Shown here: positions 48,347 through 61,429 of the stretch, piece after piece | Numbering within the stretch: position 1 is the stretch's first letter | Layout: the number at the start of each line of letters is the position of its first letter | Source: an uncultured Ignavibacteria bacterium | GTDB lineage: Bacteria; Zixibacteria; MSB-5A5; JAABVY01; JAHJOQ01 | Direction of reading: 5' to 3' | Assembly (NCBI GenBank): GCA_964415885.1 | Contig: CAYQCE010000005.1 | Span: forward strand, 40,141 to 104,140 | DNA: 64,000 nucleotides | Notes under the pieces: model-generated | Database searches by the model: none | Told to the model about the DNA's origin: nothing | What the model saw: only the letters and a program-made list of their open reading frames with translations | Translations under genes and position numbers: made by a program

Positions 48347-48910
48347 TTAGAGAATCTCTCTGACTATCTCCGGCGTCGGACGCGGAATCACAACCTTGTT
48401 GACCAGAAGCCCCTGCCTGCCGATCACATCCGCGCCGGCATCCACGGCAGCACGTACGGCTGAGACCTCGCCGGTCATCGTGACGAATGCCTTGCCGCCA
48501 AGTGCCATCGCGAGCCTGATTTCGAGAAGCTCGACATCGGCGGCTTTCACCGCTGCGTCAGCGCCCTCGATCAGCGATGCGACCGAGAAGGATTCGAGGA
48601 TCCCCATAGCGTCAAGATTAGAGACAACGTTTGTGGCGGTCAGCGCTGGAAATATCGAGTGGTGAATGTTAGGAATGATGAAAGTATCGATCACGGCTTC
48701 TCTTGCTATCTCCTCACCGTCCTGGACGGACGAGGTGACCGCCGAGACATCCCCGGTGACCATCACGATGTATTTCCCGGAACAGATTGTCCGGTTCATT
48801 ACGAGTTCGACCGCGGAGGCCTTCAACATGGCATCCGCCGCCTCTATGCCCTTTGCGATTGATGAAAACTCAATCAGCCCAATTGATTCGCGGATAATAT
48901 CAGCCATCAA
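48347..48910 (-). CDS. BMC-T shell protein (tandem BMC domains), PduT-like with conserved Fe-S cysteine
   Basis: Two BMC domains (IGLIEFSSIAKGIEAADAMLKAS... and MGILESFSVASLIEGADAAVKAADV...VIPRPTPEI). TICSGKY aligns with the PduT TICPGKF cysteine that ligates the 4Fe-4S cluster. 187 aa. Confidence 0.85.
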   Translation of the reverse strand: MMADIIRESIGLIEFSSIAKGIEAADAMLKASAVELVMNRTICSGKYIVMVTGDVSAVTSSVQDGEEIAREAVIDTFIIPNIHHSIFPALTATNVVSNLDAMGILESFSVASLIEGADAAVKAADVELLEIRLAMALGGKAFVTMTGEVSAVRAAVDAGADVIGRQGLLVNKVVIPRPTPEIVREIL

Positions 48911-50226
48911 TTCACCTCTATGGTCACGGAATGATCGATATTTGAAACGCGCCCACTCATTGAAGCGTGTACCGGCGCGCCCAGCTCGCCGTCCGGGACA
49001 TCGCCGATCATGTCGCCCTCGGAGACATGCGCCCCGACGTCAACGAGCGGTTTGCATTCTGCACCGATATGCTGCTGCAGCGGAATGACTACCTTCTCGA
49101 TATCGAGTTCAGGCTCCGTGAACGGTGCCGGATTAGCATATGGGTTAAGCCCGAGTTTGGTCTGGAGTTTCTTGGTAGGCACCCGACGGTATTCCTTCAT
49201 CGGATGCTCCTTAACCGGCTCTGTCTGCTCCCACTTGAATCCCTTTGCCTTGAGCGCGCGTTTGGAGTAGACGCAGGCATCTCTCGGCTCGAGATCTTCC
49301 GGACACGCATACAGGCTGCAGATGTTGCACTCGCAGCAAAGAGTGGCGTGCGTCGACCAGTAATCGCGCTTCTCGCCCTCGAACTGAAGCGATCGCATAA
49401 CTTTGTGTGGCTCTATCTTGTAGCCGAGCAGGTACCTCGGACAATACTCAGTGCAGTAGGTGCACTGATCGCATGCGGACTTCCCGATTCGATCAGACTG
49501 ACGTTTCGGCATCGATTTGCGGTACACCAGCTTGTTAGATTTCGGCAAAATGATATACCCGCCCGATAGTTTCGTCACCGGACTCGCCAAGTCGGTCACT
49601 ACCTTCCCCATCATCGCGCCGCCATCGAGTGCCGCCGGCTCATCGTCATAGAAGCTCAAACCTCCGGCAGCGTCGATGAGGGTCTGAAGCGTGACACCAA
49701 TCGGGATCTCGACTGTCATCGGATTCTTGACTGCGCCCGCTATTGTGAGATATTTCCGCGTGACCGGCTTACCCTCGGATGCGTTGTTGATGTTGCGCAG
49801 CGTCTCGACATTGCTGACCACGCACCCGACCTGCAGCGGCAGTCCCTCCGGCGGAATGAGTCGTCCCGTGATCGAATGAACGACCTCGTATTCATCGCCG
49901 GCCGGATAGAAATCACCGAAGAGAAACATCTTGATGTCATGCTTTGGGCAGAGTCTCCGGAACTCGCCTACCGCACGTTTGTGCTTCTCCTTCAATGCTA
50001 TATATCTCTTGTCCGCACCCACATACTCACCGGCAAGATTAGTACCGCGAAGGATATCCTCGGCTTCGCGTTTCATTATCTCGTTGTCTTTGGCGAGAAG
50101 CGGTTCGCACTCCGCGCCATTGGCAAGATAGTATTCGACGCGCGAGTTCAGCTTAACATGTGTGGGAAAACCGGCGCCGCCAGCACCGACAACACCTGCG
50201 GACCTGACCTGCTCCTTAAGATCCAT
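48907..50226 (-). CDS. PduS-like RnfC-family flavo-iron-sulfur oxidoreductase
   Basis: N-terminal glycine-rich NADH/FMN-site motif AGVVGAGGAGFPTHVKL; two ferredoxin-type CxxCxxCxxxCP clusters (CDQCTYCTEYCP; CCECNICSLYACP); 439 aa. ATGA-coupled to the BMC-T gene. Confidence 0.85.
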   Translation of the reverse strand: MDLKEQVRSAGVVGAGGAGFPTHVKLNSRVEYYLANGAECEPLLAKDNEIMKREAEDILRGTNLAGEYVGADKRYIALKEKHKRAVGEFRRLCPKHDIKMFLFGDFYPAGDEYEVVHSITGRLIPPEGLPLQVGCVVSNVETLRNINNASEGKPVTRKYLTIAGAVKNPMTVEIPIGVTLQTLIDAAGGLSFYDDEPAALDGGAMMGKVVTDLASPVTKLSGGYIILPKSNKLVYRKSMPKRQSDRIGKSACDQCTYCTEYCPRYLLGYKIEPHKVMRSLQFEGEKRDYWSTHATLCCECNICSLYACPEDLEPRDACVYSKRALKAKGFKWEQTEPVKEHPMKEYRRVPTKKLQTKLGLNPYANPAPFTEPELDIEKVVIPLQQHIGAECKPLVDVGAHVSEGDMIGDVPDGELGAPVHASMSGRVSNIDHSVTIEVN

Positions 50227-55863: not shown

Positions 55864-56637
55864 TCAGCGGATCACGCCCCGTTTGGCGGTTTCGAAGAAA
55901 CGCTTGATTGTCCGTATCTCCGGAATGTCCGGCAGTTCGCTTTCGATCCGCTCGAATGCCTTTGCCGTGGTCAACTTTGAGCGAAATATGATCCTGAATG
56001 CCTTTCGAAGAGTCTTAACCGTATTTTCCGAAAACCCGCGACGCGATAGCCCGATGTGGTTGACATCGATCACTTTCAACGGATATCCGCCCACAAGCGC
56101 GTACGGACAAACATCCATCGTGACCCGAAACCCGCCACCGATCATGGTATGCTGGCCGATACGGACGAACTGGTGCACCGGCACGATACCTCCGACAATA
56201 GCCCAGTCCTCGATGACGACGTGTCCGCCGAGATTTACAGAATTGGCGAGTATGACATGATCGCCGATTATGCAGTCGTGTGCGACATGGCTGTATGCCA
56301 TCATGAAGCAGTCCGATCCGATGACAGTCTTCCAGCGGTCTTCAGTGCCTCGATTCACGGTAGCGTACTCACGGATTACCGTGCGTTCGCCGATCTCGAC
56401 CGTTGTTTCCTCGCCGCCGAATTTGAGATCCTGTGGGACAGTGCAGATCACTGCACCATGATGGATCGCGATATCTTTTGACAGCCTTGCGCCCGGTCCA
56501 ATCAGCACGTTAGATCCGATCTTGCAGCCGGGGCCGATCTCAACATTCTCATCGATGATTGCGTAAGGCCCGACGCTGACAGTCTCGTCGATCTCTGCCC
56601 TCGGGTTCACTATTGCTGTCGGATGAATATCTGCCAT
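55864..56637 (-). CDS. lpxA: UDP-N-acetylglucosamine O-acyltransferase
   Basis: Left-handed beta-helix hexapeptide repeats throughout (IHPTAIV..., IGPGCKIGSNVLIG...) and the LpxA C-terminal helical domain; 257 aa. Confidence 0.9.
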   Translation of the reverse strand: MADIHPTAIVNPRAEIDETVSVGPYAIIDENVEIGPGCKIGSNVLIGPGARLSKDIAIHHGAVICTVPQDLKFGGEETTVEIGERTVIREYATVNRGTEDRWKTVIGSDCFMMAYSHVAHDCIIGDHVILANSVNLGGHVVIEDWAIVGGIVPVHQFVRIGQHTMIGGGFRVTMDVCPYALVGGYPLKVIDVNHIGLSRRGFSENTVKTLRKAFRIIFRSKLTTAKAFERIESELPDIPEIRTIKRFFETAKRGVIR

Positions 56638-58038
56638 CTATTTATCGACCACCGCCGCTGTCATGGATGCCTCTGTGACGAGGTTGCCATCGACGAATGC
56701 TCTCCCTTCCATCTTGCACGTATTGCGTCGGAACGCCACGAACTCCAGCTCGAAGCGAATCTGATCCCCCGGTATGACAGGCTTGCGAAACTTGACCTTG
56801 TCGATTCCCATGAAATAGACAAGCTTGTCAGCCGGTTCGTCGATTGCATTGAGCAGAAGGAACCCGCCCGCCTGAGCCATCGCCTCGACAATCAGCACAC
56901 CCGGCATAATCGGGTGGCCCGGGAAATGTCCCTGAAAAAACGGCTCGTTTATCGTGACATTCTTCAGAGCCACGACTTTCTTTTTGGGTTCGATATCAAT
57001 AATTCGATCTATGAGAAGGAATGGATACCGATGCGGCATAACGTCAAGTATCGAGCTGATATCGAGGAGCGCTCCTTCTTCAGTTGACATCCCTCCGCCG
57101 TACTTCTCCGAAATGAGCTGCTTTTCATATATCTTGCGCATTTTGCGAGCGACCGCAACATTTGCGGCATGCCCGGAGCGAGCCGCAAGAAAATGCGCCT
57201 TCACCGGAGCGCCGATCAGGGTCATGTCTCCCAGCAAATCGACAGCTTTGTGTCGCACAGGCTCGTTGTAGAAACGGAGTTCCTTGTCCTCGAGAATGCC
57301 GGTCGTGCCGAGATTGACATCCCGGTCAACACCGAGCATTTCCCGCAGCCGTCCCATTTCGTCTTCTCCGAACTCCTTGTCGACTATGACTATCGCCGTG
57401 TCGAGTCCTCCGCCCTTGATGATACCCTGCGAGCGCATCATCTCGACCTCCGAGAGAAAGCAGAATGTCCGGGCGGGCGCGAATTCATCCACGAACTCAT
57501 CTCGCAGCGAAACGAGAGATGTATACTGCGTGCCGAGAGCCTTGTTGGCATAGTCGACCAGAAATGTTATCCGGAATTCATCGGACGGAGTCACCACGAT
57601 ATCGACCTTGCGCTCAGGCTCTGAATAAGCGAACGGTTTGTCGAGAATCAGAAAACGCCGTTCTGCGTCCTGATCTACGAGCCCCGCCTCTAGGAGTTTC
57701 TCCACGAATGGAGTAATGGAGCCATCGAACACCGGTGGTTCGAGGTTGTCGAGCTCGCAGATTATATTGTCGATTTCGAGGCCGGCGATTGCCGCAAGGA
57801 CGTGCTCGACCGTATAGACCTTATTCCCATTTACTGCAAGGGTTGTGCCACGATTAAGGTCCGTAACGTGATCCACGATGGCGGGAATCTCCGGGCATCC
57901 GTCGATATCACAGCGAAGAAACGTGATCCCGTGATCGACTTCCGCCGGCCGGAAAGTGAGCTTCGATTTGCATCCCGTATGAAGACCGATGCCTTCGAGA
58001 GAGACGGGATGCGCGATTGTCCTTTGCTTATCGTTCAT
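56638..58038 (-). CDS. lpxC/fabZ: Bifunctional UDP-3-O-acyl-GlcNAc deacetylase / 3-hydroxyacyl-ACP dehydratase (LpxC-FabZ fusion)
   Basis: N-terminal LpxC (TIAHPVSLEGIGLHTGCKSKLTFRPA...HVLAA). C-terminal FabZ hot-dog fold (LLIDRIIDIEPKKKVVALKNVTINEPFFQGHFPGHPIMPGVLIVEAMAQ). Confidence 0.9.
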   Translation of the reverse strand: MNDKQRTIAHPVSLEGIGLHTGCKSKLTFRPAEVDHGITFLRCDIDGCPEIPAIVDHVTDLNRGTTLAVNGNKVYTVEHVLAAIAGLEIDNIICELDNLEPPVFDGSITPFVEKLLEAGLVDQDAERRFLILDKPFAYSEPERKVDIVVTPSDEFRITFLVDYANKALGTQYTSLVSLRDEFVDEFAPARTFCFLSEVEMMRSQGIIKGGGLDTAIVIVDKEFGEDEMGRLREMLGVDRDVNLGTTGILEDKELRFYNEPVRHKAVDLLGDMTLIGAPVKAHFLAARSGHAANVAVARKMRKIYEKQLISEKYGGGMSTEEGALLDISSILDVMPHRYPFLLIDRIIDIEPKKKVVALKNVTINEPFFQGHFPGHPIMPGVLIVEAMAQAGGFLLLNAIDEPADKLVYFMGIDKVKFRKPVIPGDQIRFELEFVAFRRNTCKMEGRAFVDGNLVTEASMTAAVVDK

Positions 58039-58255: not shown

Positions 58256-58636
58256 ATGTCAAAGATACTCGTAATCGGTCTTGGTGGCCTCATCGGGGCT
58301 ATCTCTCGTTACTACCTGAGTGAATATGTCCACAAAGTCCTCGGAGCTTCATTTCCCTATGGCACCTTGTCCGTGAATGTGCTCGGCTGCATGCTGGCCG
58401 GTTGCGTAATGTTTGCGGTAGAGGAGAAGCAAATATTCTCGCCCGAGATGGGATTGTTTATCTCGGTTGGGATACTTGGAGCGTTTACCACTTTTTCAAC
58501 CTTCGGATACGAAACTGTAGCTCTTCTGAGACAGAACCACTTTATTCCGGCTATGAGCACCGCTGCCGCAAATGTCATATTCGGTTTGGCGGCAGTATGG
58601 CTCGGTAGATCGGCCCTGCGGTTGCTCGTAGGGTGA
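58256..58636 (+). CDS. crcB: Fluoride ion channel CrcB/FluC
   Basis: 126 aa, 4 TM helices; GGxIGAxxRY motif (GGLIGAISRY) and the TTFSTF motif. Confidence 0.95.
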   Translation: MSKILVIGLGGLIGAISRYYLSEYVHKVLGASFPYGTLSVNVLGCMLAGCVMFAVEEKQIFSPEMGLFISVGILGAFTTFSTFGYETVALLRQNHFIPAMSTAAANVIFGLAAVWLGRSALRLLVG

Positions 58637-58710: not shown

Positions 58711-58742
58711 ATCTTCCGCATCAAATTTCTGTGGAGGTAGAC

Positions 58743-60272
58743 ATGGCGCTAAGAATAGGCGATGAGAGATTGAAGATAGAGGGCGTCGTTCAGGTCGCCC
58801 GAGATCGTGACCAGATTGAGTTAACCGATAGCGCTTTCGAGCGCATCAAACACTGCCGGGCGTTCGTAGATCGGAAGATCGAGGAGCACGCCATCATGTA
58901 TGGCATAACGACCGGCATCGGCGAGCTTTCCGAAGTTTTTCTTCCGGCGGAACAGATCAAGGAATTTCAGAAGTACATAGTTTATAGTCATGCCGCCGGC
59001 ATCGGTGAGCCAATGGACGAGGAGGTTGTCCGTTCGGCAATCGTCTCGCGAATCAAGGTTTTGACCCAGGGCCATTCGGGTTGCCGCCCGATAATCGTCG
59101 AGACGATGCGTGAAATGCTGAACAAAGGCGTGACACCGGCTGTCTGCAAGCGCGGATCGGTCGCGGCTTGCGGCGATCTTGCTCCGATGTCGCAGATCGC
59201 ACTCGTCGTTATCGGTGAGGGTGAGGCTTTCTACGAGGGCAAGCGCATGCCCGCGAAAGAGGCTCTGAGCAAGGCGGGTATCAAACCTGCCGAGTTCGAG
59301 GCACGTGACGGTCTCGCGTGCATCAATGGATCGAATGTCATAACCGGTATGGGCGCGTTGCAGTTATTCGATACATGGACATTCACTAAGACAGCCGAGA
59401 TTGCCGCCGCGATGACTGTGGAGGTGCTGAAAGCTAACATGCTGGCCTATGATGAACGCCTTCACAAGATACGCGGATACAGGGGCGCCATAGAGTCGGC
59501 ATCCAACATCCGCAGAATGACCGAGGATTCCGAGATTCTCGCCCAGAAAGACAAGAAGGTGCAGGATTCATACTCGATGCGCAGCACTCCGCAGGTAATC
59601 GGCTCGGCGCGTGATACTTATCGCTGGTGCCGTGAGATGATCGAGACCGAACTGAACGGTGTCGGAGACAATCCCATCTTCTTCCCGGATGAGGATGGTG
59701 GTACGGTCCTGACCGGTGCGAATTTCCAGGGCACACCGATAGCATTCCCGCTCGAGGCAGTCGGAATTGCGGTTACAACCATCGGGGTTATGTCGGAGCG
59801 TCGCTCGAACCGTCTGTTGAACAAGAATCTCTCCGTTGGCCTTCCGGCGTTTCTGACCGAGGGTGCGGGGATGTGGTCGGGTATGATGCTTGTGCAGTAC
59901 ACCCAGGGTCAGCTCGTGTCCGAGTGCAGAGTGCTGACACATCCTGCGGCAACCGGGTCTATTCCGGCGGCGGCCGATCAGGAGGATTTTGTATCGATGG
60001 GGATGACTACAGCGATCAAGACCCGTCAGATTATCGACATGTGCGCATCCGTCGTGGGTATCGAGCTACTCTGCGCGGCACAGGCGGCGGACTTCCGTAA
60101 GCCAATGAATCTCGGTAAGGGCACTAAAGCCGTGTATGAGTGTATCCGTGATCACGTGTCATATATGAAAGAGGATCGTCCGCTATACGTGGACAACAAC
60201 AAGATGGCCGAGCTTGTCAAGTCCGGTGAAATCCTGAAAGCAGCGGAGGGAGCCGTAGGCAAGCTCGATTGA
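58743..60272 (+). CDS. Aromatic amino-acid ammonia-lyase (HAL/PAL family) with Ala-Cys-Gly in place of the MIO-forming Ala-Ser-Gly
   Basis: HAL-family motifs (YGITTGIG, DSYSMRSTPQVIG, DQEDFVSMG). MIO region reads GSVAACGDLAPMS, where the canonical sequence is GSxGASGDLAPL. Start at the ATG after GGAGG (MALRIGD). Confidence 0.8.
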   Translation: MALRIGDERLKIEGVVQVARDRDQIELTDSAFERIKHCRAFVDRKIEEHAIMYGITTGIGELSEVFLPAEQIKEFQKYIVYSHAAGIGEPMDEEVVRSAIVSRIKVLTQGHSGCRPIIVETMREMLNKGVTPAVCKRGSVAACGDLAPMSQIALVVIGEGEAFYEGKRMPAKEALSKAGIKPAEFEARDGLACINGSNVITGMGALQLFDTWTFTKTAEIAAAMTVEVLKANMLAYDERLHKIRGYRGAIESASNIRRMTEDSEILAQKDKKVQDSYSMRSTPQVIGSARDTYRWCREMIETELNGVGDNPIFFPDEDGGTVLTGANFQGTPIAFPLEAVGIAVTTIGVMSERRSNRLLNKNLSVGLPAFLTEGAGMWSGMMLVQYTQGQLVSECRVLTHPAATGSIPAAADQEDFVSMGMTTAIKTRQIIDMCASVVGIELLCAAQAADFRKPMNLGKGTKAVYECIRDHVSYMKEDRPLYVDNNKMAELVKSGEILKAAEGAVGKLD

Positions 60273-60304: not shown

Positions 60305-61429
60305 GTGAACAATGTAAGATCCAGTGAGCGTCGTCGCTCGGCGCTTATCCTGAATTCGAGTCAGACAAAGAGACCGGCGGGAACCGATGAGTGGATCGTC
60401 AACACCGCAGCAGCGGTGTCATGGGCGATCGGCCAGAACCTCCGGGTGATAGCGTCGTACGGCCTCAATACGTACGAACTCGTGACTGCCATTGCGGGCG
60501 AGTACGGAGCGGAAGTTCTGCTTATAGCTCATCGTCCCGACATCGTCGATGAATCACGTTTCGCTCAACTGCTGAGCGATTTCGGTCTGCACACGCGACG
60601 CACCGAATTCGCTACCGTACCGAGTGAATCCGGATCGCCTAAATCGTGGTGGAAGAAACGCGATCGTATGGCAGTCAAGATTGCGGACGTCATACTGCCC
60701 GTCTCCATCAACCCCGACGGCAGATTAAGTCGGATTCTCGCTATGGAAGCCGTGCGCGGGAAGATCGACAACAAGTTCCGCGTGGACTATTCTCCCGAAC
60801 CGAGCGACAAATTCAAGCCGGTACCGATGGACTCACTCGTCCTCGATCCGTCTGAGAGCTTCGACTACCTCACGCACTGGACACGTTCTTTCGACCAGCC
60901 TTGGCCGAACGAAACCAGTGCGGAGTTCTACATGTCTATTGTCAACAGCGGGTTGGAATACTCTCATTCGGCGCTGAACACGCTGCGACACGTCCTGAAG
61001 ACTCGCGCTCTTTTCGGCTCATCCCGTCACATGAGAGATGATATCCACGCCGTGGGATTCAGCTATCTGCATCCGGCGGAGGCGGTGAAGCTTATGAAGT
61101 GGCGTCGTCGGTATGTCCGGCCCACGTTCGAGCCGTACGGCATAGCGATCGAGAAATCGTGCGCCGAGTTGGTTGGCGTTAGACCCGTCATCTATGGTAC
61201 TAAGGTCGACTATCAGAAACTCTCCGATATCGAACGGCCGTATTTCCAGAGTGAGGGAGAGAGACGCGGCGACTGGAAGCCGGAGCAGGAGTGGCGGTAC
61301 ATCGGCGATCTCGATCTGACATCCGTACCTCCCGATAGAATGAAATTGATCGTGCGGAAGAGATCCGAGATTGAGAGGATCGCGGAGGTAACCTCCGCCG
61401 AAGTGCTGGCATTGACCAACGAGGATTAG
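60305..61429 (+). CDS. Hypothetical protein with N-terminal DprA/SLOG-like Rossmann domain
   Basis: 374 aa. N-terminal region (AVSWAIGQNLRVIASYGLNTYELVTAIAGEYGAEVLLIAH...RDRMAVKIADVILPVSINPDGRLSRILAMEAVRGK) parallels DprA/SLOG motifs. C-terminal roughly 200 aa unassigned. 33 nt downstream of the HAL-family gene. Confidence 0.4.
   Translation: MNNVRSSERRRSALILNSSQTKRPAGTDEWIVNTAAAVSWAIGQNLRVIASYGLNTYELVTAIAGEYGAEVLLIAHRPDIVDESRFAQLLSDFGLHTRRTEFATVPSESGSPKSWWKKRDRMAVKIADVILPVSINPDGRLSRILAMEAVRGKIDNKFRVDYSPEPSDKFKPVPMDSLVLDPSESFDYLTHWTRSFDQPWPNETSAEFYMSIVNSGLEYSHSALNTLRHVLKTRALFGSSRHMRDDIHAVGFSYLHPAEAVKLMKWRRRYVRPTFEPYGIAIEKSCAELVGVRPVIYGTKVDYQKLSDIERPYFQSEGERRGDWKPEQEWRYIGDLDLTSVPPDRMKLIVRKRSEIERIAEVTSAEVLALTNED

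Follow-up and report, generated by a model that had tools for sequence, protein, structure and literature searches.

Histidine ammonia-lyases (HALs), phenylalanine ammonia-lyases (PALs) and their relatives depend on the electrophilic cofactor 4-methylidene-imidazole-5-one (MIO), which is formed from three consecutive residues of the protein itself. The PROSITE signature of the family fixes the central residue of this triad as Ser. In the HAL of Pseudomonas putida, an engineered S143C enzyme was reportedly active, while S143A and S143T were not, and Asp145 is said to be needed for MIO cyclization. The D145A mutant of this enzyme is represented by PDB entry 1gk3. MIO is described as deriving from X-Ser-Gly, with a central Ser that does not vary, for HALs, PALs, tyrosine ammonia-lyases and aminomutases in a review of MIO enzymes (PMC9002059) and in a paper on the HAL of Geobacillus kaustophilus (GkHAL; PMC11432326), the triad of GkHAL being Ala-Ser-Gly. 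No paper pairing Ala-Cys-Gly or ACG with MIO was found in the open-access subset of the literature. Here, we describe a lyase gene with a natural Ala-Cys-Gly triad in a stretch of 64,000 nucleotides (nt) from an uncultured Ignavibacteria bacterium (contig CAYQCE010000005.1, positions 40,141 to 104,140 of the forward strand; hereafter, the window). Its product is predicted, with a probability of about 0.78, to be a functional HutH (EC 4.3.1.3) of a divergent subfamily that would form MIO from Cys with the loss of H2S.

The lyase open reading frame (ORF) lies at positions 58743..60272 (+) of the window and encodes 509 amino acids (aa). The mechanically called ORF starts at an in-frame GTG at 58731. 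We placed the start at the ATG at 58743 because a Shine-Dalgarno-like GGAGG is found at 58733..58737 (+), 5 nt 5' of this ATG, and because the resulting 509 aa match the length of the homologs (507 to 509 aa). An earlier note on this DNA, made from the letters alone, had assigned the product to the HAL/PAL family of ammonia-lyases, and profile searches bore this out. The Pfam model Lyase_aromatic (PF00221) matched with an E value of 3e-169 over profile positions 1 to 465 of 466, that is, over its full length. The cut-offs of the NCBIfam HAL models were also exceeded, by the subfamily model PRK09367 (NF006871) at 566.5 bits versus 524 and by the HutH equivalog model TIGR01225 at 544.9 bits versus 539.15, the latter being a marginal pass. 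The best PDB match by phmmer was the HAL of Thermoplasma acidophilum (7tqr; E value, 4e-92). Compared with its 83% identical ortholog, the gene showed a nonsynonymous divergence (dN) of 0.13 with saturated synonymous divergence (dS), indicating purifying selection in a qualitative sense only.

The earlier note had further claimed that Cys occupies the position of Ser143 in the MIO triad. The segment GSVAACGDLAPMS was confirmed in the window protein. When this protein was aligned by phmmer with the PDB chains 7tqr (HAL) and 2rjr and 2ohy (tyrosine aminomutase [TAM] of Streptomyces globisporus), the query letters "aacgd" fell over "g--Xd", with X being the crystallographic MIO. Since A-C-G coincides with the MIO residue of solved structures, the triad is correctly placed, and the possibility that the true triad lies elsewhere in the protein is ruled out. 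The precursor triad is therefore Ala142-Cys143-Gly144, encoded by GCT TGC GGC at 59166..59174 (+), in which the Cys143 codon TGC (59169..59171, +) stands in place of the canonical Ser. A literal Ala-Ser-Gly (or X-Ser-Gly) triad, by which HALs are recognized, is absent, and Ala-Cys-Gly is found instead. The determinants for MIO formation are present: an eliminable residue at position 143 is accompanied by G144, D145 (codon GAT at 59175..59177, +; invariant in a 23-sequence alignment), N195, Y277 and F328.

We then compared the catalytic and selectivity residues in a pooled set of 202 sequences from databases and genomic loci, comprising 197 members of the clade of the window protein and 5 canonical-type copies from the tandem pairs described below. 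Eleven residues (Y53, H83, A142, G144, N195, Q274, Y277, R280, F328, M382 and E414) were invariant in all 202. The catalytic set Y53, N195, Q277, Y280, R283 and F329 in P. putida numbering is found here as Y53, N195, Q274, Y277, R280 and F328. PALs and tyrosine ammonia-lyases (TALs) are marked by Phe-Leu or His-Leu selectivity dyads, and the window protein has Ser-His at this place. An alignment of the selectivity residues, which the earlier note had proposed as a check, gave the complete HAL-type set, namely the Ser82-His83 dyad (codons 58986..58991, +), Met382 and Glu414 (codon 59982..59984, +). At the same columns, the S. globisporus TAM shares the Ser-His dyad and has A382 and Q414. Mutagenesis of the P. 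putida and G. kaustophilus HALs has established the importance of the residues compared here, among them the dyad, which is the substrate switch of HALs (PMC11432326). The GkHAL mutants Y52F, N194D and E411D are inactive (PMC11432326), and they correspond to Tyr53, the catalytic base on a mobile loop (codon 58899..58901, +), to the active-site residue Asn195 (codon 59325..59327, +), and to Glu414, a HAL-specific residue for imidazole binding and catalysis. Residue 82 was Ser in 170 of the 202 sequences, including the window protein, and Asn in the other 32. The resulting Asn82-His83 dyad (window codon 58986-58988) occurred independently of the state of residue 143, in 25 sequences with Cys and 7 with Ser.

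The distribution of Cys and Ser at position 143 was examined among these 202 relatives, which span 57 to 100% identity and more than 10 phyla. Cys was found in 168 of them (83%) and Ser in 34. A similar picture was given by the 120 closest proteins in a collection of 5.8 billion (62 to 100% identity), with 100 ACG, 19 ASG and 1 outside the search pattern. The nearest ortholog, 83% identical and independently assembled in three metagenome records (L081 to L083), carries the same GSVAACGDLAPMS. With one genome taken for each GTDB species, a scan for the clade signatures PAAADQED or YG[VI][TN]TGIGE returned at least 563 stretches encoding relatives, and the best 80 of these, all from metagenome-assembled genomes and with 57 to 65% identity, were used for the analysis of loci. 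They came from Aminicenantes, Acidobacteriota/Terriglobales, Cloacimonadota, WOR-3, Elusimicrobia and Ignavibacteria, as well as from KSB1, Coatesbacteria, Planctomycetota, Chloroflexi and Thermoplasmata, and many members of the clade belong to lineages regarded as anaerobic. Among the lyase ORFs of the 80 loci, 70 carry Cys, and the 13 that carry Ser include 4 canonical-type tandem copies. Cys was encoded by TGC in 51 cases and by TGT in 19. In the Ser-type clade members, the codon was AGC or AGT (6 cases), TCC (1) or TCG (2), mostly a single substitution away from TGY. Cys is thus the norm of a large HAL subfamily in uncultured bacteria and archaea and no quirk of the window gene.

To follow the two states over the clade, a neighbor-joining (NJ) tree of 204 unique sequences was built with the triad column left out and rooted on the S. 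globisporus TAM. Fitch parsimony gave 16 state changes, about 15 of them within the clade, with the exact number hanging on the unbootstrapped NJ topology. Ser appeared mostly at lone tips or in blocks of no more than 6 sequences amid Cys backgrounds. When the other columns were scanned for an association with Cys versus Ser, all that came out followed blocks of the phylogeny (E315, for example, marks one Ser-type subclade), and no active-site position was among them. Repeated single-nucleotide interchange without a compensating change is what would be expected if Cys and Ser were both precursors of the same product. Because the Ser and Cys forms interleave within the clade, Cys itself cannot determine specificity.

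We also looked for Ala-Cys-Gly beyond the clade. Run exhaustively against 1.84 billion representatives at 50% identity, phmmer returned 2,322 proteins with an E value of 1e-30 or lower, and the triad was tallied in the 150 nearest of them (35 to 61% identity). ASG was found in 125, SSG in 10, ACG in 7, CSG in 2, TSG in 1 and another triad in 1, and 4 were triad-less (GSVGY---L). Ala-Cys-Gly, at about 5%, was therefore the third commonest triad in this sample. It is a natural and widespread alternative precursor, commoner there than Cys-Ser-Gly or Thr-Ser-Gly. Metagenome DNA was also scanned for G-A-C-G-D-L-A-P-L, which is the usual context in canonical HALs and not in the window clade, and at least 120 stretches were obtained; among the 120 listed, about 105 were lyase genes, 73 of them full-length. 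The products of these 73 were mostly 31 to 45% identical to the window protein, and most keep the HAL residues. P0193, a representative of such distant Cys-type HALs, scored 650 bits on the HutH model. A natural Cys at the triad center thus arose many times across HALs, as a minority in the family and the rule in this subfamily. The view of the earlier note that a Cys precursor is uncommon holds for the family at large and fails for the clade itself, where Cys is in the majority; Cys also recurs in many other HAL lineages. In a scan of viral contigs with ACG and ASG DNA patterns, only four true MIO-family genes were found, all ASG, and these were uninformative as to the ratio of the two triads. 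A separate HAL-like sub-lineage combines Ala-Cys-Gly with Q274->R and Y277->L, has the signature N-R-L-R-F and mostly carries NTEDH at positions 412 to 416 (L103, L107, L126, L131, L133, L137, L158, L167, L175 and L184; P0202 and P0247). Its members score near the HutH cut-off (536 to 551 bits), and Y277->L is common to them and to the MIO-less ergothionase-like proteins discussed below.

Genes of histidine utilization (hut) were found next to several clade members. Among the 80 loci, hutU lay near the lyase gene in five. In an elusimicrobial locus (L049), a Cys-type HAL gene is followed by hutU (TIGR01228, 956 bits), a DUF520 gene and hutI (TIGR01224, 401 bits). This hutU falls below the thiourocanate hydratase cut-offs and scores as a urocanate hydratase, and within the stretch fetched for this hutH-hutU-hutI cluster, no HAL gene other than the Cys-type copy was found. 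In a second elusimicrobial locus (L075), hutU comes directly after a Cys-type HAL gene, and in a WOR-3 locus (L062), it lies 5.6 kb from one. The remaining two are Ser-type, with hutU adjacent, in Limnocylindrales (L061) and Chloroflexi (L067). The hutU and hutI genes beside Cys-type copies are the strongest evidence that Cys-type members probably act as histidases within the hut pathway.

From these data, we infer that MIO arises here by elimination at Cys143 and that the enzyme acts on histidine. During maturation, the backbone nitrogen of Gly144 would attack the carbonyl of Ala142 in the folded protein, closing the imidazolone ring. The side chain of residue 143 would then be beta-eliminated, releasing H2S from Cys instead of H2O from Ser, and the exocyclic methylidene formed would be the same as that obtained from Ser. 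In the mature enzyme, MIO would activate the amino group of the substrate, and Tyr53 would take the beta-proton. His83, Glu414 and Met382 would hold the imidazole, while Arg280, Asn195 and Gln274 would hold the carboxylate and the ammonium. The products would be trans-urocanate and ammonia. A further and rather doubtful suggestion is that the choice between Cys and Ser is not neutral and that Cys has been selected for a different chemistry of maturation, since Cys makes up 83% of residues 143 over more than 10 phyla despite the threefold number of codons for Ser, and since Ser revertants, though they arise repeatedly, have founded no large lineages. If this were true, MIO formation might be accelerated, brought nearer to completion or enabled under conditions that slow the Ser route, because H2S leaves more readily than H2O, and maturation might be tied to a reducing, anoxic cytoplasm. 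In a more radical version, part of the enzyme population would retain the thiol and have a different reactivity.

Several observations weigh against the assignment of the window protein as a HutH. By tblastn, hutU was not found anywhere in the 64-kb window, and no hut genes were found in Pfam scans of 20 large window ORFs; in the 75 loci other than the five above, there were no hut neighbors within 10 kb. Other clade members scored 506 to 524 bits on TIGR01225, below its cut-off, and the triad-less, ergothionase-like protein P0207 exceeded it (568 versus 539 bits). Because P0207 passes and the clade lies at the edge of the model, membership in TIGR01225 is permissive evidence that does not specify function. 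The clade is without a characterized member, the identity of the window protein to its best PDB structure being 35% in the MAFFT alignment and 32 to 34% in Foldseek structural alignments. Finally, five Cloacimonadota loci carry two HAL genes in tandem (L033:120-3209; L042:4746-7862; L046:8948-12011; L054:3097-6176; L064:8724-11793), with the clade copy, marked by F416, first and a canonical-type copy, with Ala-Ser-Gly and H416, second. The clade copy has Cys in L033, L042 and L046 and Ser in L054 and L064. In a tandem pair, the HutH model gave 704 bits for the canonical-type copy versus 506 for the clade copy, and the canonical-type copies group with the T. acidophilum HAL. The pairs hint at incomplete redundancy between clade and canonical HALs. 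No metabolic partner was found in their surroundings, which contain genes for GroEL, PorV, a type IX secretion system protease, DUF5683, TPR and TruA.

These pairs bear on the alternative that survives best, namely, that the clade consists of HAL-like lyases for another substrate, such as a modified histidine (N-methylhistidine, thiohistidine or another amino acid with an imidazole), with Cys143 as part of the specialization. Besides the retention of a clade copy beside a canonical HAL and the lack of hut neighbors at most loci, it draws on the identity of only about 35 to 41% between the clade and the aligned solved and canonical HALs, on the marginal HutH equivalog score, and on residue 416, which is Phe in 197 of the 202 sequences and His in the aligned canonical-type HALs (7tqr and the five tandem copies). 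However, every known histidine-contacting residue is invariant, and the Cys-type copy in L049 is the sole HAL found beside a hutI and a hutU for urocanate, not thiourocanate, hydratase. Given the alternation of Ser and Cys within the clade, Cys itself also cannot set the specificity. We therefore regard a different substrate as unlikely.

It is less probable still that Cys143 is retained, so that the protein lacks canonical MIO and either uses a thiol or a thiol-bearing imidazolone or is dead. MIO-less relatives do exist: ergothionase (6s7j) is one, and four of the 150 representatives (P0207, P0212, P0223 and P0249) have GSVGY---L in place of the triad, with Leu at position 277 and one of A, C and G at position 328; these four are presumably MIO-less lyases of the ergothionase type. 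The AlphaFold2 (AF2) model of the window protein (predicted local distance difference test score, 82; predicted template modeling score, 0.87) also has low confidence near residues 140 to 143. In the MIO-less relatives, however, the triad is missing and both Y277 and F328 are changed, whereas G144, D145, N195, Y277 and F328 are all kept here, and a thiol with a role of its own would not readily account for the free swap with Ser. In the engineered S143C enzyme of P. putida, moreover, Cys is reportedly converted.

The earlier note had also taken Cys as a possible marker of Tyr or Phe specificity or of an aminomutase. A tyrosine or phenylalanine aminomutase, a TAL or a PAL would fit the Foldseek comparison of the AF2 model with HAL and TAM crystal structures, in which template modeling (TM) scores were 0.87 to 0.91 and the S. 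globisporus TAM ranked first (0.91), as well as the similar phmmer E values to TAM and HAL and the Ser-His dyad of TAM; the Foldseek comparison of folds is unable to tell HAL from TAM. Such an activity is nevertheless very improbable. The window protein fell below the cut-offs of the aminomutase models (TIGR03832, 394 versus 501 bits; TIGR04475, 355 versus 800; TIGR04473, 181 versus 1250) and of those on the TAL/PAL side (FlxA TAL, 341 versus 700 bits; PAL TIGR01226, 251 versus 519; BagA, 224 versus 1000). E414 and M382 are of the HAL type and not the Q and A of TAM, and no biosynthetic gene-cluster context was seen around the window gene or its nearest ortholog. Together with H83, the roughly 15 switches between Ser and Cys and the Cys-type hut cluster, these results contradict the proposed marker role of Cys. 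An error of sequencing or assembly that turned AGC or TCC into TGC, for which one base change would do, can be dismissed, as Cys is conserved in the thrice-assembled 83% ortholog, in 168 of 202 relatives and in 70 genomic loci, there as TGC or TGT.

In the window, the lyase gene is flanked upstream by lpxA, an lpxC-fabZ fusion and crcB and downstream by a 374-aa ORF and purL. The LpxC-FabZ fusion (466 aa; 56638-58038, -) adjoins lpxA (55864-56637, -), both being assigned by synteny; in the nearest relative, the corresponding place holds a 465-aa counterpart of the fusion, which matches the Pfam models LpxC and FabA. The locus of the nearest ortholog shares the order LpxA/LpxC-FabZ, HAL and an ORF of unknown function. 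The fluoride-channel gene crcB (58256-58636, +) lies between the fusion and the HAL gene, which is not so in the nearest relative (L081). The 374-aa ORF (60305-61429, +), 33 nt past the HAL stop, matched nothing in Pfam, NCBIfam or the PDB. Behind the 83% HAL ortholog (L081 to L083), the same place is taken by an ORF with 46% identity to it, whereas the 80 more distant loci lack such an ORF; its product may be a conserved partner of unknown function, or its presence may reflect mere lineage synteny. Clustering of the neighbors in the 80 loci gave lineage-specific genes (epimerase, spermidine synthase, short-chain dehydrogenase/reductase, SpoIID and others), and none was clade-wide, leaving aside hutU in five. 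Elsewhere in the window, an RnfC-like subunit is encoded at 48907-50226 (-), with Complex1_51K, RnfC_N and 4Fe-4S domains. This gene and the lipopolysaccharide genes (LpxA, LpxC-FabZ and LptF/G) suggest a Gram-negative organism, possibly anaerobic.

The Ala-Cys-Gly triad gives no evidence for a new enzyme activity and would be mildly surprising to an MIO enzymologist. Rules for annotation or mining that require Ser in the motif would miss or mis-flag Cys-type HALs, and MIO-less proteins like P0207 would be automatically annotated as histidine ammonia-lyase. The Cys-type subfamily would offer a natural system for MIO biogenesis by elimination of H2S rather than H2O and a pool of uncharacterized HALs for biocatalysis. 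Compared with known HutH enzymes (P. putida, 1b8f; T. acidophilum, 7tqr; GkHAL), the window protein is alike in fold (TM scores, 0.87 to 0.90), in length, in its catalytic and selectivity residues, and in the position of the triad with its flanks G-S-V-x and D-L-x-P, and some of its relatives share the hut context. It differs in the central Cys, in F416 in place of His, in its marginal HutH score and in having no hut neighbors in the window, and its identity is 35% to 7tqr by MAFFT and 32 to 33% to 7tqr and the P. putida HAL by Foldseek. It resembles ergothionase and other MIO-less HAL-like lyases in fold (6s7j; TM score, 0.87) and in a HAL-like sequence that passes the HutH cut-off (P0207), whereas these lyases, in which the triad is absent (GSVGY---L), residue 277 is changed from Y to L and F328 is substituted, differ from the window protein, which keeps the triad and all residues that support MIO. 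Natural variation of the triad is also found in AdmH of Pantoea (3unv), where the first residue is changed to give Thr-Ser-Gly and the central Ser is kept (PMC9002059); in the window protein, it is the central residue, the one to be eliminated, that is changed. The S143C change in P. putida, which implies that dehydroalanine/MIO can form with loss of H2S, was introduced into a Ser-type enzyme in the laboratory, whereas the same substitution, at the same residue number, is natural and conserved in the clade of the window protein.

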